From the NCBI RefSeq assembly GCF_041886205.1, contig NZ_CP169029.1: a stretch of 64,000 nucleotides of DNA. One strand, written 5' to 3'. Below the pieces are notes generated by a model. It was not told where the DNA came from. It worked only from the letters and a program-made list of their open reading frames with translations, and made no database searches. Source of the DNA: Escherichia coli. Its GTDB lineage: Bacteria; Pseudomonadota; Gammaproteobacteria; Enterobacterales; Enterobacteriaceae. The position numbers and the translations under genes are program-made. Below, piece after piece: positions 1 through 35,449 of this stretch (positions are counted from its first letter, which is position 1; each line of letters starts with the position of its first letter).

Positions 1-590
1 ACAATATCCCGTGGATTCTGGATAACGGGCTGCACTGCGGCAACAGTCTGGTGCAGGCGGAAAACTGGATCAATATCGGCAACCCGGAGCTGATCGGCAA
101 GCGTGCCGGGCATCCGGTACCTGTCGGAACGGGCGGGACACTGCATGACTATGTGCCGTTTTATTTTACCCCCTTCTCGCCAATGCTGATGAACATCCAC
201 AGCGGGCGCGGCGGCATTAAGCAACGCCCCAATGAGGAGATCGTTATTCTGGTCAGCAACTTGCGAAACGTGGCAGCACACGACGTACCCTTCGTGTTTA
301 CCGACAGCCATGCTTACTATAACTGGACCAACTACTACACCAGTCTGGATAGTCTGGACCAGATCGACTGGCCCATTTTGCAGGCACGGGACTTTCGCCG
401 CGATCCAGACGATCCGGCTAAATTTGAACGCTATCAGGCAGAGGCGCTAATCTGGCAACACTGCCCGATCTCTCTGCTGGATGGGATAATTTGTTACAGC
501 GAAGAGGTCAGGTTACAATTAGAACAATGGCTGTTTCAGCGTAATCTAACAATGTCCGTTCACACACGGGCTGGATGGTACTTCTCATGA
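1..590 (+). CDS. darT: DarT-like ssDNA ADP-ribosyltransferase toxin (DUF4433), 5'-partial
   Basis: ORF 51..590 remains open in frame back to base 3 ([12 protein letters not shown]...), so the gene starts left of the window; C-terminal region contains a conserved glutamate context ([20 protein letters not shown]) reminiscent of DUF4433; followed with ATGA overlap by a macrodomain protein, the DarTG operon signature. Confidence 0.55.
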
Positions 591-1654
591 TCACATATAC
601 ACAAGGCAATTTACTGGACGCACCGGTGGAAGCTCTGGTGAATACGGTTAATACCGTCGGTGTCATGGGGAAAGGCATCGCGTTGATGTTTAAAGAGCGC
701 TTCCCCGAAAATATGAAAGTCTATGCCCTCGCCTGCAAACAAAAGCAGGTGATCACCGGCAAAATGTTCATTACCGAAACCGGGGAACTGATGGGACCGC
801 GCTGGATTGTTAATTTTCCGACCAAACAGCACTGGCGCGCTGATTCCCGCATGGAGTGGATTGAAGATGGCTTGCAGGACTTACGCCGCTTTTTGATTGA
901 AGAGAACGTGCAGTCCATCGCCATTCCACCACTGGGCGCAGGCAACGGTGGTTTGAACTGGCCGGACGTTCGGGCGCAGATTGAATCTGCCCTTGGCGAC
1001 CTTCAGGACGTTGATATCCTGATTTACCAACCGACTGAAAAATACCAGAACGTTGCCAAAAGCACTGGCGTAAAAAAGCTCACTCCCGCCAGAGCCGCCA
1101 TCGCTGAACTGGTGCGTCGCTACTGGGTATTGGGGATGGAGTGCAGCCTACTGGAAATCCAGAAACTGGCCTGGCTGTTACAACGCGCCATTGAGCAGCA
1201 TCAACAGGACGATATCCTCAAACTGCGGTTTGAAGCTCACTATTATGGCCCCTATGCGCCCAATCTGAACCATCTGCTTAATGCGCTGGACGGCACCTAT
1301 CTTAAAGCCGAGAAACGCATCCCGGACAGCCAACCGCTGGATGTGATCTGGTTTAACGATCAGAAAAAAGAACACGTTAATGCGTATCTGAACAACGAAG
1401 CCAGAGAGTGGCTACCTGCGCTGGAGCAGGTCAGCCAGTTAATTGACGGCTTTGAATCGCCGTTTGGTCTGGAGTTGCTGGCAACCGTAGACTGGTTGCT
1501 GAGCCGTGGCGAATGTCAACCAACGCTGGATTCCGTTAAGGAAGGGCTGCACCAGTGGCCTGCGGGCGAACGCTGGGCCAGCCGTAAGTTGAGGCTGTTT
1601 GATAATAATAATCTGCAATTTGCCATTAACCGCGTAATGGAGTTCCATTGCTGA
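587..1654 (+). CDS. darG: DarG-like macrodomain antitoxin
   Basis: N-terminal macrodomain motifs ([38 protein letters not shown]); about 355 aa; start ATG at 587 overlaps the stop of the upstream gene. Confidence 0.65.
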
Positions 1655-1672
1655 GGGTTTAAGGAGCGCCTT

Positions 1673-4600
1673 TTGAGTACCGTGGGCCAGCGCGAACGCG
1701 CCACACAGCAGCGTCTGATTCAGTTTTTTGTTGAAGATTTAGGTTACCGCCATCTGAGTCACCGCACCGGGTACACCGGGAACAGCAACATCGACACTAA
1801 TATACTGAGCGCGTGGCTAAAACGGCGCGGCGTTAATGATACGTTGATCACCCGGGCGTTGCGGCAACTGGATTCCGCCGCCGCTCTGGGCGAAGGCAAA
1901 AAACTCTATTACGCCAATAAAGAGGTCTATCGCCTACTGCGTTACGGCGTGAAAGACAAAGAAGGCGCAGGCGAGCAGAACCAAACCGTGTGGCTGATTG
2001 ACTGGGCCAACCCACAAGCCAATGATTTCGCCATCGCCGATGAGGTGACGGTCAAAGGCGAGTACTGCAAGCGCCCGGATCTGGTGCTGTACGTTAACGG
2101 CATTGCGCTGGGCGTGATTGAACTTAAGCGTTCGTCAGTGCACGTCAGCGAAGGCATCCGGCAGAATCTCGATAATCAAAAGAAAACCTTTATCCGCGAT
2201 TTCTTCACCACTATGCAGTTAGTGATGGCGGGCAACGATACGCAGGGCCTGCGCTACGGCACCATCGAAACCCCGGAAAAATACTATCTGGAGTGGAAAG
2301 AAGATAATCCAGGCGACTATACACATAAACTCGACTTTCATTTAAGTCGTCTGTGTAGCAAATCCAGGCTGTTGGATATCGTCCATAATTACATTGCCTT
2401 TGATGTCGGGGTGAAAAAACTCTGCCGCCATAATCAGTTCTTCGGCGTCGAGGCGGCTAAACAACATATTGCCCGTCGTGAAGGCGGTATTATCTGGCAC
2501 ACACAGGGATCGGGTAAAAGCCTGACGATGGTCTGGCTGGCGAAGTGGATCCGTGAAAATGTGCCAAACTCCCGCGTGTTGATTGTGACTGACCGCACCG
2601 AACTGGATGAACAGATCGAAAGCGTGTTTATGGGCGTGAATGAAGATATTTATCGCACCTCCAGCGGCAACGATCTTATCGCAACGCTCAATCATCCTAA
2701 CCCGTGGCTCATTTGCTCGCTGGTGCATAAATTTGGTCGTCGCAGCGAAGCTGAAGACAATGCAGCTACCGACGCCTTTATCACCGAATTACAGCACTCC
2801 CTGACGAAAACATTCCGCGCCAAAGGCGATCTGTTTGTTTTTGTGGACGAGTGCCACCGCACACAATCCGGCAAGCTGCATAACGCCATGACTGCCATTC
2901 TGCCGGACGCCCTGTTTATCGGTTTTACCGGCACACCGCTGATGAAGAAAGATAAGAAGAAGTCGGTTGAGGTGTTCGGCCCTTATATCCATACCTATAA
3001 ATTTGATGAAGCGGTGGCCGACGGTGTGGTGCTGGATCTGCGCTACGAGGCACGCGATATTGACCAGTATCTGACATCAGAGAAAAAGGTCGATGACTGG
3101 TTTGAAGCCAAGACTCGCGGTTTGTCGAATTTAGCTAGGACCCAGCTTAAGCAAAAGTGGGGATCAATGCAGAAGCTGCTCTCCAGCAAGTCGCGGCTGG
3201 AGCAGATCGTTAACGACATTTTGCTGGATATGGATACCCGTCCACGCCTGATGGACGGGCGCGGCAACGCCATGCTGGTATGCAGCAGTATCTATCAAGC
3301 CTGCAAGGTTTACGAGATGTTCAGCCAGACCGAGCTGGCAGGAAAAGTAGCGATTGTGACCAGCTATCGCCCCGATGCCGCCAGCATCAAAGGCGAAGAA
3401 ACGGGCGAAGGGTTAACGGAGAAACTCTCTAAACACGCCACCTATCGTAAAATGTTGGCTGACTATTTTGAACAAAGTGAAGAGAAGGCCGCCGCACGCA
3501 TTACCGAGTTCGAGCGGGAAGTGAAACAGCGTTTTATTGAAGAGCCGGGGCAAATGCGCCTGCTTATCGTGGTGGATAAGCTGCTGACTGGCTTTGACGC
3601 GCCGTCCGCCACCTATCTCTACATTGATAAAACCATGACCGACCATACGCTGTTTCAGGCGATTTGTCGGGTGAACCGGCTGGACGGTGAGGATAAAGAG
3701 TATGGCTATATTATCGATTATAAAGATCTGTTCCGTTCGCTGGATAAAGCGATTACCGATTACACCACGGGCGCGTTTGATGATTACGATCGGGACGATG
3801 TGGCCGGGTTGCTGAAAGACAGGCTAGAGCAGGCGCAACTGGATCTCGACAGCGCGCTGGAGATGGTTCGCAGCTTATGTGAACCCGTCAAAACCCCGCG
3901 CAGCCTGCAGGACTATCAGCACTATTTTTGCGGTGAATCAGGAGAGAATCAGACTTCGTTAAACGAAAAAGAGGCGCTGCGCCTGACATTTTACCAGTGC
4001 GTCGCCCGTCTGCTACGCGCTTATGCCAACATCGCCAATGAAATGCCGGAAGCAGGCTACACTGCCGAAGAGGTAGAGAGCATTCGCGCCGAAGTCGCTG
4101 AATTCGAAAAACTGCGCTATGAGATTAAGCTGACCAGCGGCGATCTTCTGGATATGAAGCGCTTTGAACCCGCTATGCGTCATTTACTGGATATGTATGT
4201 TCGCGCCGATGATAGCGAAGTGCTGATGGATTTTGAAGAGTTAAGTCTGATTGAACTGATTGTCGAGAAAGGCTTGGCGGCGACCGTCGCCCTGCCGGAT
4301 GATATCCGTAATAATCAGGATGCGATGGCGGAAACCATCGAAAACAACGTGCGCAAAACCATCGTGGATGAAAACCCGGTTAACCCAAAATACTATGGAC
4401 GCATGTCGCAACTGCTGGATGAACTGATTACCCTTCGCCGACAAAATGCGCTCAATTATCAGCAGTATCTGGAACGTATCCGCGATTTGTGTAAACAGGT
4501 CATCCGCCCGGAGCAAACCGCCGGAGCGTGCTACCCTGCCACCATGGATACACAAGCAAAGCGCGCCTTCTATGATAACTTCGGCCACGACGAGGTACTG

Positions 4601-4768
4601 GCGACCCGCATAGATACGACGATTCGCTATACCAAAAGGGCAGAGTGGATTGGCGATCGTTTTAAAGAACGGGAAATTGCCAACGCATTACGTGAAGAGA
4701 CCGCCAGCTATAATATTGATATTGATGAGGTGATAGCGCTTGCCCGTCAGCAGAAGGAATATCACTGA
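1673..4768 (+). CDS. hsdR: Type I restriction endonuclease R subunit (HsdR)
   Basis: 1031 aa; N-terminal PD-(D/E)xK nuclease motif (PDLVLYVNGIALGVIELKRS), Walker A (TQGSGKSLTMVW), DECH box (FVFVDECHRTQSG); TTG start with AAGGAG Shine-Dalgarno 7 nt upstream. Confidence 0.85.
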   Translation: MSTVGQRERATQQRLIQFFVEDLGYRHLSHRTGYTGNSNIDTNILSAWLKRRGVNDTLITRALRQLDSAAALGEGKKLYYANKEVYRLLRYGVKDKEGAGEQNQTVWLIDWANPQANDFAIADEVTVKGEYCKRPDLVLYVNGIALGVIELKRSSVHVSEGIRQNLDNQKKTFIRDFFTTMQLVMAGNDTQGLRYGTIETPEKYYLEWKEDNPGDYTHKLDFHLSRLCSKSRLLDIVHNYIAFDVGVKKLCRHNQFFGVEAAKQHIARREGGIIWHTQGSGKSLTMVWLAKWIRENVPNSRVLIVTDRTELDEQIESVFMGVNEDIYRTSSGNDLIATLNHPNPWLICSLVHKFGRRSEAEDNAATDAFITELQHSLTKTFRAKGDLFVFVDECHRTQSGKLHNAMTAILPDALFIGFTGTPLMKKDKKKSVEVFGPYIHTYKFDEAVADGVVLDLRYEARDIDQYLTSEKKVDDWFEAKTRGLSNLARTQLKQKWGSMQKLLSSKSRLEQIVNDILLDMDTRPRLMDGRGNAMLVCSSIYQACKVYEMFSQTELAGKVAIVTSYRPDAASIKGEETGEGLTEKLSKHATYRKMLADYFEQSEEKAAARITEFEREVKQRFIEEPGQMRLLIVVDKLLTGFDAPSATYLYIDKTMTDHTLFQAICRVNRLDGEDKEYGYIIDYKDLFRSLDKAITDYTTGAFDDYDRDDVAGLLKDRLEQAQLDLDSALEMVRSLCEPVKTPRSLQDYQHYFCGESGENQTSLNEKEALRLTFYQCVARLLRAYANIANEMPEAGYTAEEVESIRAEVAEFEKLRYEIKLTSGDLLDMKRFEPAMRHLLDMYVRADDSEVLMDFEELSLIELIVEKGLAATVALPDDIRNNQDAMAETIENNVRKTIVDENPVNPKYYGRMSQLLDELITLRRQNALNYQQYLERIRDLCKQVIRPEQTAGACYPATMDTQAKRAFYDNFGHDEVLATRIDTTIRYTKRAEWIGDRFKEREIANALREETASYNIDIDEVIALARQQKEYH

Positions 4769-5484
4769 TGCCAATCATGCAAATAGGCTCGTTACACTTG
4801 CTGGTCAACCGTAAGGCGATTAAGAATCTGCATATCAGCGTGCTGCCGCCTGATGGCAAAGTCCGCGTTTCAGCGCCGGAACATATGACGGAGACGGCGA
4901 TTCGTATGGCGGTTGCTTCACGCTTTCGCTGGATCAGAAAACAGCAGCAGGATTTCGCCAGACAGCCTCGTCAATCAGAGAGGGAAATGGTCAGCGGAGA
5001 GTGCCACTATCTTTGGGGCCGAAGATATCGCCTACTTGTGATTGAGCGTCACGGGCGTCACGAAGTAAAAGTTGCGGGAAATAATAAGCTCCAGCTTTAT
5101 GTTCAACCGGGAACCCGTGATGAAAATAAGGCATTGGCGTTAAGTGAATTTTATCGACATGAACTAAAACAGCAGGTGGCTAAGCTTCTACCTGAATGGC
5201 AGGACCGAATCGGTGTTCCCCTAACATTCTGGGGCATCAAAAAGATGAAAACCTTTTGGGGCACCTGTAACACTACAACAAAACGAATCTGGCTCAATCT
5301 GGAGCTAATTAAGAAGCCGCCGGAGTGTCTGGAGTATATTCTGGTGCATGAACTGGTTCATCTTCTGGAACGTCACCATAATGCTCGCTTCCGGTTGCAT
5401 ATGGATCGGTTTATTCCTGACTGGCGTGAGCGTCGGGATTTGTTAAATAATATGCCGTTAGCGTTTGAGGCATGGGAGTATTGA
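4768..5484 (+). CDS. DUF45 / M48-like zinc metallopeptidase (YgjP-like)
   Basis: 238 aa with HExxH motif (ILVHELVHLLERHH); start overlaps hsdR stop, so it is translationally coupled. Confidence 0.7.
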   Translation: MPIMQIGSLHLLVNRKAIKNLHISVLPPDGKVRVSAPEHMTETAIRMAVASRFRWIRKQQQDFARQPRQSEREMVSGECHYLWGRRYRLLVIERHGRHEVKVAGNNKLQLYVQPGTRDENKALALSEFYRHELKQQVAKLLPEWQDRIGVPLTFWGIKKMKTFWGTCNTTTKRIWLNLELIKKPPECLEYILVHELVHLLERHHNARFRLHMDRFIPDWRERRDLLNNMPLAFEAWEY

Positions 5485-6005
5485 TTGAGCCTGTAACTGT
5501 TTTTTGTCCATAAATTAACCTTCATTTGATGCTGGATTGAACATATCAAAATCAGACAATTACACAAATCTATGTACAGGCTCAACTCCTGCCATGGAAC
5601 GTAGTACTCACCAATAAGTAAGCATCAATACGGCGCTCCGTTAACGCTTACTAGCATGGTTATCTCCTTAAAAAATTGAGGCGACAACTATGCTGACGCA
5701 GGGGGGTATTGGGTGATCTCCTTCCATGAAAATACGCAGCTTGATTGCATTAAATTTATTTAATTTGCACTAATTTTGTTTAAGTTACATTACCACACGT
5801 GGGATATTGGAATACAAGCAACGCGAGGAATCAGTAAATATACCAATAATTGTATCACCCCTTTAATATTCATTAAGGTTTCAGGCCCTCCGGCACGATT
5901 CACCTGGCGAATCAATTCACGAGTCGCCCCAGAGTCACCGCCAATAAACATGCGATTCAACTCCCGATTCGATTCTCACTAATCTATTGTTTTATATAAA
6001 GATAG

Positions 6006-6063
6006 TCAGTACTGACTCTGTGACGACTCGCCGATGACTTGCCATAGAGTCATCGGCGAGTCG
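6006..6063. repeat. Two adjacent perfect palindromes (14 bp AGTCAGTACTGACT; 16-bp stem CGACTCGCCGATGACT with 8-nt loop)
   Basis: Read directly in an ORF-free AT-rich spacer downstream of the DUF45 gene. Confidence 0.8.
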
Positions 6064-6273
6064 GATCGGCATAATAAAAATTATCATAACGTAATTCTGA
6101 AATTATAACTTTATGATTTTAAATACCTATCAGCAAAAACTTGGTTTTGCATGGGGTGTGGAGATTTTGAGGTAAGAAGCAGGCTATCGTAAAATAGCCT
6201 GCTGGGATGGATTCAGTAATCACCGAATAAATTGCGGAGCAAAAAAACCGCCAATCAAGAGATGGGTTAGCAA

Positions 6274-6609
6274 TCAATTTTCGTATTTAAATTCAATATT
6301 AATCTTTAAAGCCTCTACATCTACTGTCACTTCACAGCCATGCCAGAATGGTTTTTCCTGAGATTTAAAGTTATCTAGAAAATAATTTCTTAATTCCACA
6401 AGAAAATCAAATAAATCACCGTTTGCTTGTGCCCCTGCCGAAAACCAATCAGTATTGCCAGTATCTGCATTTATATAGTCAAATTCACATTTACAATGAT
6501 CATTTTCAGGAGACAGTTCTGCTCTCATGATCACTTTGGATGCATTTTCAGGCGCAATGGATAGCAATACTGAACCTATATCATTATAAATCTCTTGATC
6601 AGTCCTCAC
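6274..6609 (-). CDS. Hypothetical small protein, immunity-protein-like
   Basis: 111-aa ORF starting with GTG immediately after the stop of the upstream ORF, with GGAGGT Shine-Dalgarno embedded in the upstream gene end; AT-rich. Confidence 0.35.
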   Translation of the reverse strand: MRTDQEIYNDIGSVLLSIAPENASKVIMRAELSPENDHCKCEFDYINADTGNTDWFSAGAQANGDLFDFLVELRNYFLDNFKSQEKPFWHGCEVTVDVEALKINIEFKYEN

Positions 6610-6921
6610 CTACTTACCTCCGGGTACATTTTTAAACGTTTCAGATACCGGCCTTATGCTGTTACCTGTATAAGATGGCTGGATATTAACTTTAATGCTC
6701 ACTATCCCTGACTCATCCATCTGCTGCATCAACAGAACGGATAAGTCATTCTTCATTGCCCACGGAATATCTTCACCCAATGCCCTGTCTATGGCTTCGT
6801 GAACCAACAAACTGTTAGCAGGGATGTCACCGTACTTCTCTTTGCAGGCTGTCGGGCTCGAAGCACATGTTGCGATCAGTTCATTACGCTGCTTGAGACT
6901 CAGATCTTCCATTTCTTTCAC
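6610..6921 (-). CDS. Hypothetical small protein, possible toxin C-terminal-domain-like module
   Basis: 103-aa ORF abutting the downstream ORF (TAG then GTG); preceded by a 9-bp-stem hairpin at about 7010-7035. Confidence 0.3.
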   Translation of the reverse strand: MKEMEDLSLKQRNELIATCASSPTACKEKYGDIPANSLLVHEAIDRALGEDIPWAMKNDLSVLLMQQMDESGIVSIKVNIQPSYTGNSIRPVSETFKNVPGGK

Positions 6922-7047
6922 GATCTGACCACAGTCACCACGGGCCTCACAACCTTTCGCCCTCGCCGCAAAGTTATCGATCTGATCAGCACTCAGGTAG
7001 TTATTCTCAACAACAATCCCAACTAAAAGGGTTGGGATTCATTACCC

Positions 7048-7491
7048 TTATGTATAAAGACTATCGTCGTAGGGTGCTTCAGTCAGAATTTTTTGAATTT
7101 CATGTCGTGCTTTTAGCTCCCATGAAAGATTCATATTTGCCATTAACTCAATAAATTTTGGGAACGCGATACGTCGTCCATCTCTGCCTTTAACCCTGTG
7201 TTCTAATTCATATTGGAATGCTGTCTTATAAGCGAGTTCTGACATGATCCAATAAAGTAGCTCATCTAGTGACCTAGTAACCTTCCGCGAGAATTCATAA
7301 CCTCTTTCTGAATGAATGTAATTATATACATTGTTTTCAAATGTAACATATGGTGTGCCATCACCAATTGGAGCGGAACAAAGATTAACTGAATGTCTTG
7401 GGAGACCAGCTTGCAAGGTCAACGCGTCAATTTTCCTTTGTATTTCATTGATATTCAGCAACATATTAGCGAACCTCACGAATATATCCAT
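7048..7491 (-). CDS. Hypothetical protein, immunity-protein-like
   Basis: 147-aa ORF whose ATG lies inside the 3' end of an upstream open frame (overlapping toxin/immunity-style arrangement). Confidence 0.35.
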   Translation of the reverse strand: MDIFVRFANMLLNINEIQRKIDALTLQAGLPRHSVNLCSAPIGDGTPYVTFENNVYNYIHSERGYEFSRKVTRSLDELLYWIMSELAYKTAFQYELEHRVKGRDGRRIAFPKFIELMANMNLSWELKARHEIQKILTEAPYDDSLYT

Positions 7492-7721
7492 TCTTCAATA
7501 GCCATTCCACATTCACTCGATCTTGCATATTAGGTAATATCTGAATCCCCCCTCCAGGCTCACCAAAAGCGGGGGCAATCTTTCCTTGTATAGCAGGCAA
7601 GGGTTTTATTACCTCATATTCATAGTATTTATATGAACGCATCCCGTTTGCAAGGCATCCATTGTTTTGACATGACGGGTAGGTTGCAGCTTTATATCCG
7701 GCTTTATTGCAGCCGTAACGC
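7468..7721 (-). pseudogene. Start-less open frame, possible C-terminal fragment of a truncated polymorphic-toxin gene
   Basis: Open frame on the minus strand (...NKAGYKAATYPSCQNNGCLANGMRSYKYYEYEVIKPLPAIQGKIAPAFGEPGGGIQILPNMQDRVNVEWLLKNGYIREVR*) with no plausible start, ending 21 nt inside the downstream ORF. Confidence 0.25.
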
Positions 7722-7902
7722 TGCGAGCCCCTATGTAATTCGCCGACTCACCCCTTATTTTCACGGCGGACTTCAAGCCCAAAATACTGTTCAGGTTTAG
7801 TGAGTCACGGTCTTACCTGTCTTTGTCATCACTCTGGCCGCCATAGCAACCTTTCAGCATTCACCCTTTTGTTAAGAGTTCATTGTTTAATGGTATCAGC
7901 GA

Positions 7903-8064
7903 TTAATATGGTCTGATACTGACGTGGTTCCTGTCATACTTACGGTCATGGGCGGTTATCGCCCATACTGTTCGTGCCAGCTTGTTTGCCATGGCGACGA
8001 TTGCCACACTGGCTGGACGACGTTTTTTCAGTTCGGTTATCCACGGGCCAGGCTCTTTAGCTAC
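7903..8064 (-). pseudogene. IS110-family transposase, C-terminal part, separated from its 5' part by an IS66-family insertion
   Basis: Minus-strand translation continues the interrupted tnp frame across the target duplication (...KEPGPWITELKKRRPASVAISAMANKL...), a typical IS110-family C-terminal tail. Confidence 0.55.
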
Positions 8065-8094
8065 GTAAGCGACTCGTCAGAACCGTATTGATAT

Positions 8095-9666
8095 TTACTG
8101 AGAGCTCAGATCAACTTTCCAGGGCAACAGATCGCGTACCCGGTTTGCCGGCCAGTCCTGGATATGTTCAATGACGTAACGCAGCCACTTTTCTGGCTCC
8201 ACATTGTTCAGACGGCATGTGCCGATCAGCGAGTACAACACCGCCGCATGTTCACCACCGCTGTCGGAACCCGCGAACATCCAGTTTTTCCGGCCTACGG
8301 CCACTCCCCGTAAGGCGTTCTCTGCGATGTTGTTGTCGATTTCCACCCAGCCATTACTGCAGTACACGTTCAGTGCATCCCACTGTTTCAGCAGGTATGC
8401 GAACGCTTTTGCCGTATCTGAGTGACGCGACAGTGTTTTCATCTGTTGCTGTATCCAGTCATACAGTGACTGCATCAGTGGCGCGGCTCTGGCTTTTCTT
8501 GCCGCCAGACGCTGTTCTGCTGAACAGCCCCGGACCTCTGCCTCGATGGCATACAGTTCACCGATACGCTGCAGGGCTTCCGTGGTGATGTAGGTGGACG
8601 CTCTTGCATGCACATCGTGGATTTTTCTCCGGGCATGAGCCATACACGCGGCTTCCGTTATTCTGCCGGATTCGTATAACGCCCGGTAACCACCGTAAGC
8701 ATCGGCCTGAAGCACACCGCTGTAACCGGCCAGGTGATTTTGTGGATGGATACCTTTCCGGTCCGGACTGTACGCGAACCAGACCGCCGGGGGCATCTGT
8801 GAACCGGCGTTACGGTCATCACGGACGTAGACCCACAGCCGGGCTGTCCGGGTTTTACCGCTGCCCGGCTCCTGGACCGGGACGGGGATATCATCAGCAT
8901 GGACTTTACCGGGCATCAGCACATACTGGCGCAGGACGTCATACAGCGGCTCCAGCAGTTCAGCAACAGCACCTGTCCAGCGCCCCAGTGTGGCACGGCT
9001 CAGCTCCACTCCCTGACGACGGTATATTTCTGACTGGCGGTATAACGGCAGATGGTCTGCATATTTCCCGGTGACAACATGGGCCAGAAGCCCCGCTCCG
9101 GCATAACTGCGTGCAATGGGTTTTGAAGGTACTGGTGCCTGCACGATATGGTCGCACCGGCAACAGGCCTGTTTCGGACGTTGTGTTTCGATAACCTTAA
9201 AGGCGCTGCTGATAAGCTCCAGTTGCTCTGACACATCACATCCCAGAGAACTGAGTTCACCACCACAGGCAGGACAGCATTCCTCTTCCGGCCGGATAAC
9301 CCGGGTTTCACGGGGAAGTGAGGCCGGTAACGGTTTACGGGCTGAAGACTGGCGCAGGGCGGATGGCAGTACCGGGTCATATTGCTCACCCAGCGTTTCC
9401 GCCATTTCTTCCTGAAGTGCGCTGATTCGCTCCTGTGCTTCCTGTATCTGCCGTTCGGTTTTTGCACGAAGTTTTTCTGAGCTTTTACCGAACTGCATAC
9501 GTTGCAGTTTCGCAACCAGCGCCTTCAGCCGGTTGATTTCGGAAGCATAAGCCGCCACCCGCTGTGAGAGCAGGCGGTTGTATTCAGCCATCTGGCGGAT
9601 GGTGTCCTGTTGCGTCTGCAACAGTGCCCGCAGGCGGGCGTTCTCATGAGCAAGTGAGGTGTCCAT
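8095..9666 (-). CDS. IS66-family transposase TnpC
   Basis: 523 aa, N-terminal coiled-coil/leucine-zipper region, CxxC zinc-finger pairs, typical IS66 TnpC length. Confidence 0.85.
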
Positions 9667-9685
9667 ATCCTCACTTTACAACGGG

Positions 9686-10033
9686 TTATATGCGGATTCC
9701 AGCGCGTTCCGTTCGTTTCGGGTGCTTCCAGTTGATACCTTCAAGAAGCATGGATAACTGAGCCGGAGTAAGGTGCACCTTGCCGTCACGGGTGACTGGC
9801 CAGACGAAGCGGCCCCGCTCCAGGCGTTTGGTGAAGAGGCACAGTCCGTCACTGTCAGCCCACAACACTTTTATCTGGTCACCCCGGCGTCCGCGGAAGA
9901 TGAACAGGTGTCCGGAGAACGGGTCATCCTTCAGGACGTTCTGAACTTTTGATGCCAGGCCGTTAAAGCCATTTCGCATATCGGTGATACCTGCAACCAG
10001 CCAGATACGCGAACCTGCAGGGAGAGATATCAT
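9686..10033 (-). CDS. IS66-family TnpB (orfB)
   Basis: 115 aa; WLVAGITDMRNGFNGLASKVQ motif characteristic of IS66 orfB. Confidence 0.85.
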   Translation of the reverse strand: MISLPAGSRIWLVAGITDMRNGFNGLASKVQNVLKDDPFSGHLFIFRGRRGDQIKVLWADSDGLCLFTKRLERGRFVWPVTRDGKVHLTPAQLSMLLEGINWKHPKRTERAGIRI

Positions 10034-10710
10034 CAGTGGCTGCTCCCTTTTATTTCGCGGATAAGTGTCTGTAATAACGCCGGCGTCAGTTTACCTTTAA
10101 GCCTGAGAGTTCCGGCCGGCAGAACCAGCTCACAACACAGACTGTCGGACGGTGTATTTATCTGCTCTGGTTCCTGTGCGGGGGCCGGGATTTTATTATC
10201 CGGCTCCGGCGTTAACGTCACGGGAAGCAGTGCCGGCATATTTTTTCCGGAAGGCAGCAGGCCACCTTTCCGGTATTGATGGCGCCAGTTGAAGAGCAGG
10301 TTATCGTTGATTCCGTTTTCCCGGGCGATCTGCGCCACACAGGCTCCGGGCTGCAGTGACTGCTCCACTAAGGCGATTTTAAACTCATAAGGGAAGTTGG
10401 GCCGCCGGGGACGTTTTTTTACCACGGGGGCTTCGGATATAACGGTGCTTTCAGGACGTACGACTGGTACCGTGGAAAATTGTCCGTAAAGGCAGGCATC
10501 AAGTTCCTGCTCCGACATGCCTGCGGGCAAAGGCCACGAAAGGCCAGCTCTCCGAAAGCGCACGAACATACTACAAACTGTTGATTTTGGTACACCCAGG
10601 CGACGCCCGGCCACAACCCGGGGTAAATGTTCTTCAAAGTGAAGACGTAAAGCTTCAGTGATCCAGGTCCGGTGTTTCATACGATAGTGTCCATTAAAAA
10701 TGATGGACAT
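10033..10710 (-). CDS. IS66-family orfA (HTH accessory protein, extended form)
   Basis: 225 aa; C-terminal IS66 orfA-like region (FKIALVEQSLQPGACVAQIARENGINDNLLFNWRHQY); start/stop overlap with orfB. Confidence 0.7.
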   Translation of the reverse strand: MSIIFNGHYRMKHRTWITEALRLHFEEHLPRVVAGRRLGVPKSTVCSMFVRFRRAGLSWPLPAGMSEQELDACLYGQFSTVPVVRPESTVISEAPVVKKRPRRPNFPYEFKIALVEQSLQPGACVAQIARENGINDNLLFNWRHQYRKGGLLPSGKNMPALLPVTLTPEPDNKIPAPAQEPEQINTPSDSLCCELVLPAGTLRLKGKLTPALLQTLIREIKGSSH

Positions 10711-10763
10711 TATTTTTGTAGAGCCGGAGGAAACAGACCAGACGGTTTAAATGAGCCGGTTAC

Positions 10764-11629
10764 TTAGCTACTAATGCCACCGCTCTTGCACCGTGGATAA
10801 ATAATGTCCTGAGATAAGTGTCACCACGTTTGCTTATCCCCAGCAGACGTACTTTCCCTCCGGAGCCAGTTTGTTTTGGAACCAGACCAACATATGCGGC
10901 GAACTCTCGCCCCGATTTAAACGCTGATGCTTCCCCCATGGTGGCCACCGCTGCCGTCGCAATAAGTGGTCCAACGCCAGGAATATCCAGCAACCGCTTA
11001 CAGGTTTCATTCTGCCTCGCCACGCTGGTAAGCTGTTTTTCAATATCCTCTATCAGTGAGTCCAGCTCATTCAGTCGGTTGTACTGGTTTTCCAGAACCA
11101 TAATGAGATACGGTGGCAGTCTCTCTTTCATCCGTTCCAGTGCTTCGGGGAACTCCCGCTCCATCGCTGCCCGGCCTTTGTGGATGGTTTCACCAAACTC
11201 CAGTAACGTCCCGTGCAGGGCATTAATTTGTGCGGTCCGGAACTTCACCAGTTGCATGCGGGTACGGTGCAGAACCAGTACCGACTGCTGTTCTTCTGTT
11301 TTTACGGCGATTTCTTTACCCGGCTGCTGAACCGCCATCCAGATAGCCCGGGCATCCATCACATCATTCTTATTGCCCATGACGAATGCCTTAACGAAGC
11401 GGGCCTGCAACAACCGGACTTTATGACCAAGTTTTGTCAGTTCCCGTGCCCAGTGCTGAGAACCTCCACAGGCCTCCATACCAATCAGGCATGGCTCACG
11501 GTTGCCGAAGAACATCAGAAAATCCTGTCTACGCAACTGTTTATCAACCACTTCACCTGTGTGCTCATTGATGAAGTGAATCTGAATGACATGTTTTGCG
11601 ATATCAACGCCAACCGGTGTATATTTCAT
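10764..11629 (-). pseudogene. IS110-family transposase, N-terminal 288 codons, truncated by the IS66-family insertion
   Basis: N-terminus MKYTPVGVDIAKHV (DEDD/RuvC-like) and C-terminal Tnp domain (DIPGVGPLIATAAV...YVGLVPKQTGSGGK...ISKRGDTYLR); its stop codon is supplied by the terminal bases of the IS66-family element. Confidence 0.7.
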
Positions 11630-11771
11630 TTGTGGAGTCTCCAGTCTGAGGGAGCTTTATGCATCCCGTATTGGGCACTATGATGCCGGAAATCTGCGAG
11701 GCTCCACACCTGCCAGTTTCACCCTTTTAACCATCATACTGCTCCGTGTTTAATTGTGTGGGATGCGTTCA

Positions 11772-11942
11772 TTACATTTTCACCATTTTGCCACTGCGGC
11801 CCCGGAAGACGAAGATATGCCCGGAGAACGGGTCATCTTTCAGCGTGTTCTGCACCTTCGAAGCCAGGCCGTTGAAGCCACAACGCATATCTGTGATGCC
11901 AGCGATGATCCAGATTCTGGTACCGGTCGGCAGCGTTATCAT
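11772..11942 (-). pseudogene. IS66-family orfB fragment (first ~50 codons) of a second, truncated IS66-family copy
   Basis: Translation MITLPTGTRIWIIAGITDMRCGFNGLASKVQNTLKDDPFSGHIFVFRGRSG then diverges; homologous to the intact orfB at 17905..18252. Confidence 0.6.
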
Positions 11943-12613
11943 CGGATACCCCCTTTCATTTCGCGAATGAGCACCCTAAGAAGCTCCGGAGTAAGGGGGG
12001 CAAACAGTTTTACCACACCTGATTTAAGATGCAGCTCACACTGTGGTGAGTCTACGGTAGTGTCATTCTGGCTTTCATCAGACTTGTTTCGCCAGAAAGG
12101 ATTTGTCACCGGTTTGACAGGGTCAGGAGTCTCAGTGATTGCTACCGGAACGGCCTGACATTCTTGGAGATCCTCATCATACAGTAAGCCCTCTTCATAC
12201 AGTCTTTTCCAGTTAAACAACAGATTGTCATTAATATTGTGCTCTCTGGCGATCCGTGCAACGACTGTACCAGGCTGTAATGCCTGTTTTACCAGCCTGA
12301 TTTTAAATTCACGACTGTAGGAGGTTCGTCGTTCTTTTCGCCATGTGCTTTCGCTGATTTGAGGCTCGGTTAATACCTTCTTTCTGTTGGCATAAAGTAT
12401 GGCATCAAGTTGGGCGACTGAAAGTGATTCAGGTAATGGCCAGGTAATACCGGAGGCATTAAATCGTTGAAAGAGATTATGAATAGTGGAATGACTGAGA
12501 CCTAACTGCAGGGCGATAGCCCGGACAGATAATTGCTCGTCGAATCTTAGACGTAATGCGTCTGGCAAATAAGAGCGAAAGCCGGTGATATCTTTTGTTG
12601 TCTGAGAATTCAT
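11939..12613 (-). CDS. IS66-family orfA (copy 2, extended form)
   Basis: Homologous to the orfA at 10033..10710 (IRLVKQALQPGTVVARIAREHNINDNLLFNWKRLY); probable start MNSQTT at 12613. Confidence 0.6.
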   Translation of the reverse strand: MNSQTTKDITGFRSYLPDALRLRFDEQLSVRAIALQLGLSHSTIHNLFQRFNASGITWPLPESLSVAQLDAILYANRKKVLTEPQISESTWRKERRTSYSREFKIRLVKQALQPGTVVARIAREHNINDNLLFNWKRLYEEGLLYDEDLQECQAVPVAITETPDPVKPVTNPFWRNKSDESQNDTTVDSPQCELHLKSGVVKLFAPLTPELLRVLIREMKGGIR

Positions 12614-12945
12614 CGTTCGTGTCCATCTATATAGATGGACGCGATTGTTGCCAGACAGGACAACCATCACAAAACGTCACAGACGGAGCCTTACATCTCA
12701 GCTGTAGCACACGCAGGATCAATTCCGGATTATCTGCCAGTACCGCCTTTCGTGCATTCATCTTAAATGTCCTTTTACTGCGAAAATGGACATTAGTATC
12801 GGAAACAGGAAAGGGAGGCGAAAGACGGTTTAAATGATGCGCTTACTGTTGTCTGGGAATTCATCGTTTGTGTCCATCAATATAGTTGGGCACGATTGTT
12901 GCCAGACAGGACAATTTTCACAAGACGTCGCAGATGGGGCGCTTA
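12596..12945. repeat. Imperfect ~90-bp direct repeat of an IS66-family terminus / orfA 5' region (12596-12700 and 12853-12945) containing the 20-bp perfect palindrome GTCCATCTATATAGATGGAC
   Basis: Aligned by eye; both copies carry GAATTCATCG...GTCCAT...GATTGTTGCCAGACAGGACAA; a CGCTTAC-type terminus follows at 12843-12850 and 12937-12943. Confidence 0.6.
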
Positions 12946-13325: not shown

Positions 13326-14609
13326 TTAGTTACATTTAGCTCTAAGTGTTTGTAGTTTCATCGCAATGAGTAAAAGGACAACAAGAATAAGTGATAACGT
13401 TAAGAGAAGAGCATAGAAACCATTCCAGTGGTATATTTCTATTATTTTAGACAATGGATAGCCAGCCGCGGATGCACCAAGATATGCGAATAAACTAACA
13501 AAACCAGTAGAAGCACCAGATGCATATTTATGTGAGTTTTCAGCAGCTGCCATTGCGATCAGAAATTGTGGACCAAAGATAAAGAAGCCAGTGATGAAAA
13601 ATAACAACGAAAAAACATATTTACTATCGATAGAAACCAACCATAGACATGCAGAAGCAATGATTATACCAATTGTATAAATAACATTCATTTGAGAGCG
13701 ATTGCCCTTAAACAGAATATCTGATCCCCATCCAGCTACGATAGCACCAAAAAAGCCTCCAACCTCAAACATCATTACTGTTGCATTTGCTGTTAGCAAG
13801 TCATATTTATGAGTCTCAATCAAATACAAATTTCCCCAGTCATTGATTCCTGTACGAATAACATAAATAACTGCATATGATATTGCCAATACCCAAATTA
13901 TATTATTTTTAAATATATAATCTTTTAAGATATTCCATTGTGACAACCCTATACCTTGTTCTTCATGATTAATCTCAGCTATATCATTACGCCACTCTCC
14001 AACTGTTGGTAATCCCATCGATCTTGGTCGATCACGCAATAAGAAACATAATAAAATGCCAATAATAACAGCAATGGCCCCCGGAATAATCATGCCATAA
14101 CGCCAACCTAGCCATAAGGCAACACTACCTGATAAAATAGGGATAATTGCTCCACCGATATTATGAGATGTATTCCATATGGACCACCAGAATCCACGTT
14201 CATTTCGGGAATACCAAGTATTTAAAATTTTTGAACACGGAGGCCATCCCCATCCCTGAAAAAAAGCATTAACCATCCATAAAAATATAAACAAAGGTAT
14301 AGATGATGTTAAACCAAACAATATATTGACACATCCAGTCATTATCAATCCAATCCCCATAAACCATCTTGGATTAGAACGATCACCTATAACTCCAGAA
14401 ATAAATTTTGATGCCCCATAAGTTAGATAAAATGCCGTTCCGACCATACCAATATCTGATTTTGTAATACCTAAATCAGATAGCATCTCAGGCATTACGA
14501 AGTTAAAGCTCTTTCGTGTGAAATAAAATACAGCATATCCTATATAGCTCACAATCATTAAATGAAGTCGCCAATATCTATATGTTTTATCAATATCAGT
14601 TTTACTCAT
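13326..14609 (-). CDS. MFS transporter, organophosphate:phosphate antiporter family (UhpC/UhpT/GlpT/PgtP-like)
   Basis: About 427 aa, 12 predicted hydrophobic segments, family-typical motifs (DRSNPRWF, FFQGWGWPP); AT-rich; likely start MSKTDIDK at 14609. Confidence 0.7.
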   Translation of the reverse strand: MSKTDIDKTYRYWRLHLMIVSYIGYAVFYFTRKSFNFVMPEMLSDLGITKSDIGMVGTAFYLTYGASKFISGVIGDRSNPRWFMGIGLIMTGCVNILFGLTSSIPLFIFLWMVNAFFQGWGWPPCSKILNTWYSRNERGFWWSIWNTSHNIGGAIIPILSGSVALWLGWRYGMIIPGAIAVIIGILLCFLLRDRPRSMGLPTVGEWRNDIAEINHEEQGIGLSQWNILKDYIFKNNIIWVLAISYAVIYVIRTGINDWGNLYLIETHKYDLLTANATVMMFEVGGFFGAIVAGWGSDILFKGNRSQMNVIYTIGIIIASACLWLVSIDSKYVFSLLFFITGFFIFGPQFLIAMAAAENSHKYASGASTGFVSLFAYLGASAAGYPLSKIIEIYHWNGFYALLLTLSLILVVLLLIAMKLQTLRAKCN

Positions 14610-14956
14610 TGTTATTTCTTTGTCAGGAGACTCTGAAAATATGGACATATATAACCTCTTTTATTATGAAATATTTTCAATAATAATCCGTTAGTAATCC
14701 TATCATAGGGTAATGCCTCATCATGTTAAAATGATCACATTTATAATCATGTCAAAAAGAACAACAGAAAAAATGATTTAAAATCAATTAAATATAATTT
14801 CAACATATTGTTGTTATTAAAACATTGGTGGTAAATGTAAAGCGAGAACAGTTTGTAACAGTGACTCCTTGCAGACTAAGTTAGAGTCTCCTGATCTTAC
14901 CCAGCAATAGTGGACACGCGGCTAAGTGAGTAAACTCTCAGTCAGAGGTGACTCAC

Positions 14957-21380: not shown

Positions 21381-22053
21381 CAAGCCTTTTTGCACCAACT
21401 GATGTACACAATCAGATTTCAGCCTGTCCGTAATAATTATATTTGATATTACATTAACGCTCTTTAACTGTAGGACAGCACAGCGTAAATTGTTGAATAG
21501 TTCATTTAAAAAATCATAAGGATAAAAAACCAACACTTAAAACATTGTTCTTTTTCAAGAACACATATTTAAATAAAATAACAAACCGCTACCAACTTTA
21601 AAACATTAAAAAAACTGTGAGAGATTACTCTGAAAAGAGTTCATAGCTTTTTAATAAACCATATAAAGTAAACAATACATATGTTAACCCCCCAGAAAAA
21701 ACGTGACAAGAACATAACACCATAAGCAGATACCATATACACGCACACCACCATAACGAATTGGTCACTGGTTCATGACAAACCGTTCATAATTGCTAAA
21801 AATATTAATACACCATCATATAGACTTTCATGTCTAATGAAAAAATATTTATACTCCAGAATAGCCACAACCTTTATAAAATTCAGCTCATTAGAATATA
21901 AATGCATATGCCAATGAACAGAATACATTCTCATCCTTATTGAGGAACATACTGCCTGAGAGAAAAATCATCACTCAGACTTTGAAATAACATTGTCGAA
22001 TTCATATTATACAAAAGGGGAGTCATTCCCCTTTTTTAGCTTAGGTACTCAGT

Positions 22054-22875
22054 TTATAAGGAAATGGCAGAATACTCTGTGTTTATCCATGAGTGTTCCT
22101 TTTCCCAGGTGAATATCCATTTACGTACTGGTCCGGCCATCACGTTAAGGTAATAACTGTCATACCCGGCCATCGTCGCCACCGGGTGGTACCCTTTCGG
22201 CACCATGACCACGTCACGGTTATAGACCGCCATACATTCATCAAGTGTGCGGTCATCGGTATACACCCGCTGCATGCAGAACCCCTGTTCCGGGTTGAGG
22301 CGATGGTAATAGGTCTCCTCCAGATAGCTCTCCTGAGGCGGGTTATTCGTATCGTGTTTATGGCTCGGGTACGAACTGGTACAGCCTTCGTTGGTCCAGA
22401 CCTCGACGACCAGCAGGCTGTCAGCGGGCTTGTCTTCCGGCAAAATATTATGCACATAACGCTGGTTGTGGCCGTTACCGCGCGCTTCGCCATCGATATC
22501 CTGAGGTGCAATCAACCGCGTCGGGTATGTCCCTTTTCCCGGAGCGGTACAGACTGCCAGCTCCAGTTTCGTCAGCGCCTTCACCTGCACTGCCTCCTGC
22601 GGGGTGACGTAAACTGCCCAAGGTTTGATGCGCTCGAACGGGCTCATCCGCTCCCCGATATCAGTAAACTGTGCAGAAGGAGTGCTGATGAAAGCGCGCC
22701 CGGCCACCAGCACCAGACAGCGCTCTTCACTGACAGCGGGCAGCGTCAGTTGCTGCCCTTCCTCAAGTTCATAGGCCTCAAAGCCAACATATCCCCATCC
22801 GGCGCTTTCCGGCGTGACAGACTGAGTCCGCCCCTCAGCGTTCGGCTGTTGCCAGCGTGATAACAAACGTGACAT
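22054..22875 (-). CDS. iolB: 5-deoxy-glucuronate isomerase IolB
   Basis: 273 aa, KduI/IolB cupin-like; located in the iol operon. Confidence 0.8.
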   Translation of the reverse strand: MSRLLSRWQQPNAEGRTQSVTPESAGWGYVGFEAYELEEGQQLTLPAVSEERCLVLVAGRAFISTPSAQFTDIGERMSPFERIKPWAVYVTPQEAVQVKALTKLELAVCTAPGKGTYPTRLIAPQDIDGEARGNGHNQRYVHNILPEDKPADSLLVVEVWTNEGCTSSYPSHKHDTNNPPQESYLEETYYHRLNPEQGFCMQRVYTDDRTLDECMAVYNRDVVMVPKGYHPVATMAGYDSYYLNVMAGPVRKWIFTWEKEHSWINTEYSAISL

Positions 22876-22884
22876 GTCACCTCC

Positions 22885-25691: not shown

Positions 25692-25703
25692 GTTGAACCC
25701 TCT

Positions 25704-26837: not shown

Positions 26838-26845
26838 CGTGATCC

Positions 26846-27874: not shown

Positions 27875-27885
27875 GAGAAACTCCG

Positions 27886-29433: not shown

Positions 29434-29484
29434 CAGCCTGCTCCTTATTTATGGGGAGCCGCCCGTACGGCGGCTCCAGACAAA

Positions 29485-30414: not shown

Positions 30415-30445
30415 TATTATGTCTCTCTGTGTAGGGTTGTTGTGT

Positions 30446-31432: not shown

Positions 31433-31626
31433 AACGGCTCCCGGTGTTGATGAATGCGGTGAACTAACGACACTACAAATAAAACATTTATTTCATTTTT
31501 ATAAATAGTGAAAATTATATTTTGAGTGACAGTTAACACTTTTGAGATGTATTAGATAAATTTTGTTATCAATCTCACAACGCCGAGGAAGATATGTCCC
31601 TCCATTACAAGGGGGGGAGGGAATAA

Positions 31627-31656
31627 AAACTGTACCATCCCCTCTCCCGTTGGGAG
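31627..31656 (-). terminator. Perfect 14-bp-stem palindrome, probable terminator after iolD
   Basis: CCATCCCCTCTCCC-GTT-GGGAGAGGGGATGG; T-rich run follows on the minus strand. Confidence 0.5.
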
Positions 31657-31716
31657 AGGGGATGGGTGAGAGGAAAAAAGAAAAATGAAATGAAAATTTC
31701 GTTACGACAGGAAAAC

Positions 31717-33642: not shown

Positions 33643-33653
33643 AAAACCCCCTG

Positions 33654-35159: not shown

Positions 35160-35449
35160 CCTTAACCTCTCGCTGTTGATACGTGACTGTTACCTGAACG
35201 TTATGTACTGAACACTATATATGAAACAAATATTCCATTTTAAGTTGAAATAAAATAAATAATGATTATTGTGATCAAGGATGGATTTTTATGTGAACAG
35301 CCAGCATCACTGACTCAGCCTGAGCTATTAGGAGTTTCGGGCGAGGAAATGACTGAAGCTTCTGTTTCATTTTTGCTGCCAGGTGGATGGCCAACATTTA
35401 AAAGACGCGGTTTTGCGTTTAGAATCATGAGACTGGATAGGGGGATAAC

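Follow-up and report, generated by a model that had tools for sequence, protein, structure and literature searches.

Four minus-strand frames in a 64-kb window of Escherichia coli DNA (positions 6274-7747; the window is the whole stretch of 64,000 nucleotides that was analysed) are very probably the tail end of a cdiBAI locus of E. coli, truncated at an IS element, with decayed toxins and intact immunity genes. The array appears to consist of two CdiA-CT/CdiI modules, each made up of a dead toxin-tip fragment followed by an intact immunity gene, and both modules seem to derive specifically from CdiA and not from Rhs. In CDI, CdiA is exported by CdiB, attaches to a receptor on an adjacent cell and delivers the part of itself that follows the VENN motif. 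The N-terminal sub-domain of this CT region serves entry into the cytoplasm, the C-terminal domain kills, and sibling cells contain the cognate CdiI, which binds the toxin and blocks it. The arrangement is of an ordinary and well-described kind, that of the orphan cdiA-CT/cdiI modules (Poole et al. 2011).

Organization of the array

The region contains the following features:

6274-6609, minus strand: cdiI, putatively YezG/EsaG-like (DUF600), 111 aa, intact; GTG start abutting the toxin TAG
6610-7038, minus strand: orphan cdiA-CT, 142 codons, start-less above VENN (VENN at 7000-7011; identity to TW14588 CdiA)
7048-7464, minus strand: cdiI, Imm63 family, 138 aa, intact (Pfam Imm63 PF15599, 3e-29)
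7466-7630, minus strand: CdiA-CT toxin-tip remnant, TNT (NAD+ glycohydrolase), last 54 codons plus TAA stop
7631-8060, minus strand: ISEc11-like IS110-family right end (ZYB62 annotation; transposase C-terminus to ~7903 plus ~270 nt of non-coding end)

A preliminary description of this DNA had noticed four consecutive minus-strand frames of low GC content. All four are present in the window sequence and its ORF list, tightly packed, although some of their limits had to be corrected, and the GC content over 6200-7600 is lower than in the neighbouring hsdR (0.355-0.475 versus 0.50-0.54). Chance does not account for these frames: a significant family match or identity to annotated genes is seen for three of them, and in the fourth 53 of 54 residues match the C-terminus of a TNT toxin. 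The roles proposed at that stage also agree with our results, the start-less and 103-aa frames being toxin-derived and the remaining two immunity genes. tRNA and Rfam scans gave no match in or near the region, and a repeat search over 5480-8100 found nothing structuring the array itself.

A TNT-type toxin stump and an Imm63 gene

The start-less frame, previously put at about 84 codons, is actually open for 93 (7469-7747). Only its last 54 codons (7469-7630) derive from cdiA: DNA homology to cdiA genes starts at 7630, and above this position the frame lies in non-coding terminal sequence of an IS110-family element. The stump residues (KYYEYEV...YIREVR) agree at 53 of 54 positions with the C-terminus of the full-length CdiA of STEC17-190, whose full CT matches Pfam TNT PF14021 at 4.1e-30 and, in the PDB, solved NADases (down to 4e-17) and Mtb TNT (4qlp, 8.4e-6). 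The identical ZYB62 sequence is labelled 'TNT domain-containing protein, missing N-terminus' in RefSeq. The stump at 7466-7630 has neither a start codon of its own nor a VENN motif or delivery region, the VENN region of this module having been lost in the IS-adjacent deletion, and its 54 residues alone are probably too short for an active TNT domain.

The immunity gene behind the stump can be read from two starts. An upstream ATG at 7491 gives a 147-aa ORF (7048-7491) which overlaps the start-less frame by 26 nt including the stop, and not by 21 nt as previously noted. However, this overlap is probably not real, because the homologues behind full-length cdiA all begin at the equivalent of ATG 7464, one base past the toxin TAA and with GAGG 9 nt upstream, which yields 138 aa. 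The protein shares 95% and 93% identity with the products of immunity genes directly behind TNT-type cdiA in STEC17-190 and IGC_RcoliRes_1.1, respectively, while a PDB sequence search with it returned no significant match. With a stump matching a TNT-type CT and a neighbour matching Imm63, the TNT/Imm63 pairing is present; Imm63 has been described as the immunity protein that typically accompanies TNT/Ntox40 toxins (PMC9503650).

A deleted nuclease toxin and its putatively YezG-like neighbour

In the second module, the 103-aa ORF beginning with GTG 6921 (6610-6921) belongs to a longer frame that is open from 7038. A TGA at 7039-7041 precedes this frame, in which no ATG, GTG or TTG occurs ahead of GTG 6921, itself downstream of VENN; the peptide GIVVENNYLS is encoded upstream of this GTG. 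VENN is the hallmark motif of the CdiA pre-toxin region. From VENN onwards the product is 100% identical over 105 aa to residues 2923-3027 of TW14588 CdiA; identity to the C-terminus of that protein holds up to 6696, and the N-terminal CT region is intact. At the DNA level, comparison with cdiA of TW14588 and with the orphan of M3 resolved two in-frame deletions to the base, one of 498 bp with its junction at 6696/6695 and one of 42 bp between AAGGCCGG direct repeats, the surviving copy of which lies at 6648-6655. Together they remove nearly the whole EssD-like Endonuclea_NS_2 core, a loss of about 180 residues with the conserved DEGGHLIA segment among them, and about 22 of the 124 nuclease-domain residues are left. 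An intact Endonuclea_NS_2 domain with GGHLIA is absent from the frame, which shows only marginal traces in Pfam (DUF6862, 0.022; Endonuclea_NS_2, 0.44), so that the nuclease family is clear only from undeleted relatives; the undeleted CT matches Pfam Endonuclea_NS_2 at 1.4e-39 and the S. aureus EssD nuclease (8guo_B) at 1.6e-16. Among 5,426 complete E. coli genomes, the deleted form is shared only by ZYB62. The product, WP_227928642.1, is annotated as 'hypothetical protein' in RefSeq and appears to be an internally deleted CdiA-CT.

The abutment of TAG and GTG with an embedded Shine-Dalgarno sequence, already recognised in the preliminary description, is found at the end of this frame, where GTG 6609 follows the TAG and GGAGG (6617-6621) lies 7 nt upstream of it. 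The 111-aa protein encoded from there matches Pfam YezG-like PF04634 over its full length at 4.6e-4, a weak profile score, and TIGR01741 of NCBIfam at 0.0034 (17.5 bits, below the cut-off of 82), the sole NCBIfam match for any of the four products. In the PDB it matches best, though without significance (E 0.53), the EssD partner EsaG (8guo_A). The combination of an EssD-type toxin with EsaG/DUF600 corresponds to a known pair, PDB 8guo containing EssD with EsaG, and some near-identical copies of the protein are named 'immunity protein YezG family protein' by NCBI. The protein itself (WP_001258403.1, a 'hypothetical protein' in RefSeq) is identical to the TW14588 CdiI encoded behind full-length cdiA; at the DNA level, 6274-6609 differs from the TW14588 gene in 1 of 336 nt (AAA versus AAG, both lysine). 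We take the 111-aa protein to be a CdiI, a role suggested mainly by its position and by its identity to the gene product behind TW14588 cdiA.

Could the two modules still be a functional orphan toxin/immunity reservoir, or type II TA pairs, with toxic 103-aa and 58-aa products that are neutralised by their neighbours? Internal starts exist at GTG 6921 and ATG 7642, and orphan CTs elsewhere are toxic upon artificial expression (PMC3150448). Nevertheless, we consider this very unlikely, since the 58-aa ORF begins in IS-derived sequence and retains only the last 54 toxin residues, a stump with about 53 of the 90 residues to which the Pfam TNT model aligns, while the other frame is missing the ~180 residues with the DEGGHLIA that aligns to EssD (Pfam E 0.44), and the window holds no cdiA that could take up the modules by recombination. 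Both CT remnants are predicted to be inactive, against the earlier suggestion that the two products might be toxic: one has 54 C-terminal residues and the other retains hardly anything of its nuclease core. Type II TA pairs were rejected for the same truncation and core loss in the toxin frames.

The IS boundary and the syntenic loci

The remnant of the cdi locus is bounded upstream by the ISEc11-like end, into which the start-less frame runs: homology to other IS110-family copies stops at 7619-7631, just where cdiA homology starts (7630). An IS110-family end had been described here before, and it is indeed ISEc11-like and lies immediately upstream. The element is split by ISCro1 (~8060-10760), and its left end is located inside IS66 tnpB at ~11776. 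Strain C10 shares this ISEc11 insertion in IS66 tnpB, and there the remainder of tnpB and then tnpC come after the element. The window thus carries an IS-adjacent deletion, which explains the loss of cdiB and cdiA at this locus. The lack of an upstream cdi gene, rightly noted before, is therefore no puzzle, as TW14588 and C4 carry cdiB/cdiA exactly there. Besides the remnants there is no cdiA or cdiB in the window; tblastn with full CdiA and CdiB found no other coding sequence in the 64 kb, and the array does not stand downstream of a cdiB-cdiA-cdiI cluster within them. Since linked cdiB/cdiA are missing and the syntenic loci have them, the locus was classed as a remnant and not as a working CDI system.

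The comparison with other strains shows where the modules belong. TW14588 and C4 have a complete cdiB-cdiA-cdiI in the same place, converging on M48-hsdR-darG-darT-hsdS-hsdM, with orphan arrays present. The second module forms the true C-terminus and cdiI of a full-length cdiA of more than 3,200 codons in TW14588, and the first does so in STEC17-190 and IGC_RcoliRes_1.1. Strains M3 and C4 likewise have both of them, as orphan modules in the arrays that lie behind cdiA. Looking for the cassette behind cdi loci elsewhere, as had been proposed, thus led to cdiA C-termini in other E. coli. The previously suspected likeness to CdiA-CT/Rhs-CT cassettes holds for its CdiA part, given the VENN in the second toxin frame and the presence of both modules at the end of full-length cdiA elsewhere. 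The Rhs part does not stand, in view of this motif and of the CdiA/CdiB neighbours in relatives.

These loci also bear on a different function, that of a novel small anti-phage operon working with the adjacent type I RM/DarTG module. The array does adjoin hsdR/DarTG in a low-GC island, and two of its four frames are only 'hypothetical protein' in RefSeq. Yet all four are explained by CDI toxin/immunity families and by near-identity to cdiA/cdiI, both would-be effector frames are truncated or gutted, and a PADLOC scan of the four products returned zero families at E <= 1. The adjacency itself appears to be inherited island synteny and not a functional link, because complete cdiBAI loci hold this position in TW14588 and C4. 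We therefore regard an anti-phage operon as highly improbable, and the earlier idea of a novel defence cassette was abandoned. The chance that the modules are orphan Rhs-CT/RhsI (T6SS-linked) is just as slight: Rhs loci likewise have start-less CT fragments with immunity genes, and TNT, Imm63 and Endonuclea_NS_2 domains are common to polymorphic toxins of several secretion types, but the demarcating motif is the VENN of CdiA and not the PxxxxDPxGL of Rhs, the full-length homologues are haemagglutinin-repeat CdiA beside ShlB/FhaC-family CdiB, and none of the syntenic loci examined has a rhs gene annotated nearby.

Proposed history and residual function

Judging from the syntenic strains, the ancestral order of the cdi locus would have been cdiB, cdiA with a TNT tip, cdiI (Imm63), an orphan VENN-cdiA-CT with an EssD-like DNase (Endonuclea_NS_2), and a YezG/EsaG-like cdiI. 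A deletion beside the ISEc11 copy would then have taken cdiB and all of cdiA but its last 54 codons, and the two in-frame deletions nearly the whole nuclease core of the orphan toxin. With cdiB/cdiA and the nuclease core lost, no toxin should be made or delivered from this locus. The residual function would lie in the two intact immunity genes which, if transcribed, would protect the cell from neighbours deploying TNT-type or EssD-like CdiA toxins. The locus has lost its native cdiB promoter, and a simple promoter/terminator scan of 5480-8100 detected neither a sigma-70 promoter nor a terminator on the minus strand; we can thus only infer the source of transcription, most plausibly read-through from the same-strand upstream IS genes. 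The locus would accordingly be an immunity-only relic, and neither a toxin-antitoxin addiction module nor an anti-phage system.

As both deletions are in frame and the stop/start junction is preserved, the gutted frame might be retained as a leader ORF for translational coupling. Selection may then keep it open because its translation is coupled to expression of the downstream cdiI, which would make it part of an immunity-only cassette and not a product of neutral decay; we think this unlikely. In a related scenario, the cassette might have recruited transcription leading out of the upstream IS elements as its promoter.

Comparison with known systems

The closest parallels are the orphan cdiA-CT/cdiI modules of EC93 and EC869 (Poole et al. 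2011, PMC3150448), in which a fragment that is start-less near VENN precedes an immunity ORF with its own start and Shine-Dalgarno sequence. They are shared with full-length cdiA of other strains and interspersed with IS elements, as here, and the second module (6274-7038) fits their pattern exactly. In contrast to them, the parent cdiB/cdiA has been deleted here and the toxin of the second module has no catalytic core; with this core lost through the two in-frame deletions, the orphan is no longer a usable toxin reservoir. TW14588 CdiA (WP_096938779.1) comes from the same island and shares an identical immunity protein and a CT that is 100% identical over 105 residues, but TW14588 has cdiB, a 3,235-aa CdiA and an intact Endonuclea_NS_2 toxin, none of which is found in the window.

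Outside CDI, the S. aureus EssD (EsaD)/EsaG and B. subtilis YeeF/YezG pairs (T7SS/LXG) share the toxin family of the undeleted CT and, putatively, the Pfam YezG-like immunity family, the resemblance to EsaG being weak. They differ in delivery, which is by T7SS for EssD/EsaG and by CdiA two-partner secretion for Gram-negative CDI. Extra DUF600 copies in staphylococci are likewise immunity genes retained without a working toxin. For the first module, the TNT at the C-terminus of M. tuberculosis CpnT is of the same domain family as the full CT, but delivery is by CdiA in the intact relatives and only the 54-residue stump is retained in the window. The antitoxin of Mtb TNT, IFT, is as far as is known a different protein from Imm63. 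Polymorphic toxin pairs of TNT/Ntox40 with Imm63 (PMC9503650) have the same combination as the first module.

An orphan cdiI of S. Typhi, as cited in a review (PMC9086364), forms an immunity-only islet. According to this source, immunity is kept there without a linked delivery system, as at our locus, presumably for protection from competitors' CDI toxins. Compared with what is cited of that islet, the history of decay is legible here from the toxin stumps, the IS junction and the intact syntenic loci.

Beyond annotation the importance of these findings is small: two RefSeq 'hypothetical proteins' can be renamed as a deleted CdiA-CT and its putative CdiI, and the RM/DarTG module and the cdi array would be neighbours through synteny, not one system. 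Nonetheless, the locus illustrates clearly how CDI weaponry may decay, by an IS-adjacent deletion and in-frame loss of the toxin core, with its immunity genes surviving. Orphan cdiI genes of EC93 are expressed and protective, and immunity-only loci exist (PMC3150448, PMC9086364); the surviving genes described here fit the view in the literature that orphan immunity genes persist because they protect from competitors.

Four packed minus-strand frames

The preliminary description of a small, packed, low-GC array on the minus strand held. The ORF listing and the sequence gave four successive frames between 6274 and ~7747, designated A to D in their order along that strand, with a GC content of 0.355-0.475 across the array versus 0.50-0.54 in hsdR.

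Frames of the array
7747 to TAA 7466-7468, minus: frame A, open for 93 codons
7048-7491, minus: frame B, 147 aa if started at the first ATG; 138 aa (7048-7464) if started at the second
6610-6921, minus: frame C as a 103-aa GTG ORF (open from 7038, 142 codons)
6274-6609, minus: frame D, 111 aa, GTG start

The start-less frame A, given as ~84 codons, is present but is open for 93 codons and only partly a coding remnant. Its overlap with frame B is 26 nt, not 21 nt, and is probably unused. The 103-aa ORF does start at the GTG, but frame C extends upstream of it to 7038. As described, the TAG of frame C directly abuts the GTG of frame D, with GGAGG 7 nt upstream of the frame D start.

Two modules from the end of cdiA

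Translated from 7038, frame C reads IPTLLVGIVVENNYLSADQIDNF... and carries at 7000-7011 a VENN motif that had been overlooked. VENN is the pre-toxin motif of CdiA proteins and marks the start of their variable C-terminal toxin region (CdiA-CT, here CT). In intact CDI, CdiA is exported by CdiB and the region after VENN is delivered into neighbouring cells; entry proceeds via the N-terminal CT sub-domain, the C-terminal domain is the toxin, and CdiI neutralises the cognate toxin. E. coli TW14588 has a cdiA for 3,235 aa with a ShlB/FhaC-family cdiB upstream of it, and there the segment that runs from VENN to the end of frame D is the genuine 3' end of this cdiA together with its cdiI; the cdiI product (WP_001258403.1) and the frame D protein are one and the same. 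M3 and C4 carry the C/D module as part of a long array of orphans downstream of cdiA.

The undeleted TW14588 CT matched Pfam Endonuclea_NS_2 (1.4e-39) and aligned with the solved nuclease domain of S. aureus EssD (8guo_B, 1.6e-16), DEGGHLIA segment included. Frame D matched Pfam YezG-like over its whole length (4.6e-4) and scored under the cut-off of TIGR01741; its best PDB match, which was not significant, was EsaG, also in entry 8guo. DNA alignment with TW14588 and M3 mapped two in-frame deletions in frame C, one of 498 bp (junction 6696/6695, no obvious microhomology) and one of 42 bp between two AAGGCCGG repeats, of which the copy at 6648-6655 survives. Jointly, they take out ~180 residues, nearly all of the nuclease domain among them, and leave VENN, a ~105-residue N-terminal CT region and ~27 C-terminal residues. 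Frame C also carries a single G>A change (Val to Ile), and one extra G at the C/D junction converts a TAGTG stop/start overlap to TAG-GTG. The frame D gene is intact, one synonymous base apart from that of TW14588.

In the other module, the cdiA-derived part of frame A is only its last 54 codons (7469-7630), with 53 of the 54 residues the same as in strain STEC17-190. In STEC17-190 and IGC_RcoliRes_1.1, the frame A/B sequences form the 3' end of a full-length cdiA and its Imm63 immunity gene. The STEC17-190 CT matched Pfam TNT (4.1e-30) and, N-terminally, DUF6862 (3e-9), and a PDB sequence search matched it to solved NAD+ glycohydrolases and Mtb TNT. Frame B matched Pfam Imm63 (3e-29); its gene is intact, with 93-95% identity to functional-locus homologues, all of which start at the equivalent of 7464, one base past the toxin stop. 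The literature names Imm63 as the immunity protein typical of TNT/Ntox40 toxins (PMC9503650). With the family matches, both toxin-immunity pairings, TNT with Imm63 and EssD-like with probable YezG-like, are those to be expected. In IGC_RcoliRes_1.1, homology extends across the Imm63-VENN spacer and on into another orphan's VENN region (query to 842, window 6959); Imm63/VENN is therefore a recurrent orphan junction.

These data bear out the suggestion of orphan CdiA-CT/immunity cassettes: frame C carries VENN, and both modules recur elsewhere as the 3' end of a full-length cdiA with its immunity gene (TW14588; STEC17-190, IGC_RcoliRes_1.1). We are thus highly confident that the locus is a decayed CDI tail. 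Active toxin/antitoxin pairs are contradicted by the absence of the catalytic parts. Rhs-derived modules were rejected, since VENN is the motif here and every full-length relative is a CdiA beside CdiB.

Probable loss of cdiB and cdiA at an IS boundary

An IS110-family end instead of an upstream cdi gene had been noted, and this was corroborated: tblastn of TW14588 CdiB and CdiA against the whole window matched 6610-7011 alone, and an ISEc11-like element lies upstream, followed by a truncated IS66 (tnpA, tnpB') and a uhpC-like gene.

Insertion sequences upstream of the array
~7631-11776: ISEc11-like element, transposase split (10760-11629 and ~7903-8070), interrupted by complete ISCro1
~8060-10760: ISCro1 (IS66 family), tnpA 10033-10710, tnpB 9686-10033, tnpC 8095-9666
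tnpA 11939-12670, tnpB' 11772-11942: outer truncated IS66 hosting the ISEc11-like element

Above 7630 lies the non-coding right end of the ISEc11-like element; homology to other IS110-family copies ends at 7619-7631 and cdiA homology begins at 7630. The left end lies within IS66 tnpB (~11776). Strain C10 has an uninterrupted ISEc11 at the same tnpB site in the same uhpC-IS66 context, followed by the rest of tnpB and tnpC; the window's lineage has therefore undergone a deletion from the ISEc11 right end. This took the remaining IS66 and everything to cdiA codon -54, the exact ancestral content of the lost segment being an inference.

Start-less frame A runs through the ~270-nt non-coding 3' end of the element (7631-7903, minus), which folds more stably than its shuffles (MFE -80.4 kcal/mol, z = -2.57, none of 200 as good); no Rfam match was found for this segment. 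Relatives are named 'IS110 family RNA-guided transposase' in RefSeq, so the segment may be the source of the element's bridge (guide) RNA. The uhpC-like MFS transporter gene (13326-14648) has a very low GC (0.28-0.38) and is isolated between IS elements.

Genomic neighbourhood and relatives

Genes on the other side of the array
51-590: darT
575-1654: darG
1673-4768: hsdR
4768-5484: M48 metallopeptidase

Within 1-5484, darT-darG is immediately upstream of hsdR, and the M48 gene overlaps the hsdR end. The hsd/darTG/M48 module is conserved beside the CDI locus in ZYB62, TW14588 and C4, where the upstream order hsdM-hsdS-darT-darG places DarTG within a type I restriction-modification operon. TW14588 and C4 carry complete cdiB(-cdiC)-cdiA-cdiI loci with orphans exactly here, convergent on M48 peptidase-hsdR-darG-darT-hsdS-hsdM, so that island synteny accounts for the nearness to the RM/DarTG module. 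A novel defence cassette, suggested by that nearness, is not upheld: PADLOC gave no match and all features are otherwise explained.

Between the cdi remnant and the M48/hsdR operon, which converge, lies a perfect inverted repeat (6024-6063, 16-bp arms, 8-nt loop, CGACTCGCCGATGACT/AGTCATCGGCGAGTCG). It is a possible bidirectional terminator or REP-like element, although a simple terminator scan did not call it. A 68-bp relic (5584-5651) is 94% identical to the start (terminal sequence) of the TW14588/ZYB62 IS66-family insertion, and 17 nt within it (5617-5633) repeat the ISCro1 terminus (8083-8099) imperfectly and in inverted orientation. The remnant is thus bracketed by inverted IS66-type ends, probably coincidental debris.

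A megablast search with 6100-7800 matched 507 of 5,426 complete E. coli genomes, among which only ZYB62 carries the whole stretch, at 100% identity; the gutted form thus occurs in one of the 5,426. RefSeq annotates its frame A as 'TNT domain-containing protein (pseudogene, missing N-terminus)', frame B as 'immunity 63 family protein' and frames C and D each as 'hypothetical protein'. In ZYB62 and TW14588, an IS66-family element separates cdiI from the M48 peptidase gene; that of ZYB62 (ISEc23) has on either side a copy of the 8 bp at window 6160-6167. This site is empty in the window, so the source is a close relative of ZYB62 and, over this region, exactly the same as none of the 5,426 genomes.

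The same island holds a putative myo-inositol catabolism cluster (~22000-36300), judged by ORF sizes and ZYB62 annotation (iolB, iolE, iolC-like, iolG, iolD, mmsA-like, ABC transporter, RpiR regulator), and ends near a tyrosine integrase gene (~45699-46901). Rfam gathering-level matches at 48811-49004 and 50147-50324, the antisense RNA Ysr251 at 188.5 bits and a tandem pair of copies of naRNA4, a REP-derived nucleoid-associated RNA, are unrelated to the cdi finding.

Possible role of the remnant

The toxic activities once encoded here would have been NAD+ hydrolysis (TNT) and DNA cleavage (EssD-like nuclease). Judged from sequence, neither toxin can be active, since frame A is down to 54 codons and frame C is without nearly all of its nuclease domain, and the locus would no longer be able to attack. 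The sole plausible activity would be that the two CdiI proteins guard the cell against neighbours bearing these toxins. An orphan cdiI is protective in EC93, and immunity-only islets have been suggested to act likewise (PMC3150448, PMC9086364). A promoter scan of 5480-8100 showed no minus-strand sigma-70 consensus promoter, so transcription would need read-through from same-strand IS genes upstream. In our estimate, it is about as likely as not that the immunity genes are still expressed and protective. A rather unlikely reading is that the disarmed leader ORF is retained in frame for translational coupling of cdiI, to which two deletions both in frame (by chance ~1 in 9) lend slight support.

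The arrangement is a textbook orphan/degenerate cdiA-CT/cdiI one, and the toxin and immunity families involved are catalogued already and frequent among E. coli genomes. All that sets this sequence apart is its exact path of decay and how rare the gutted form is.
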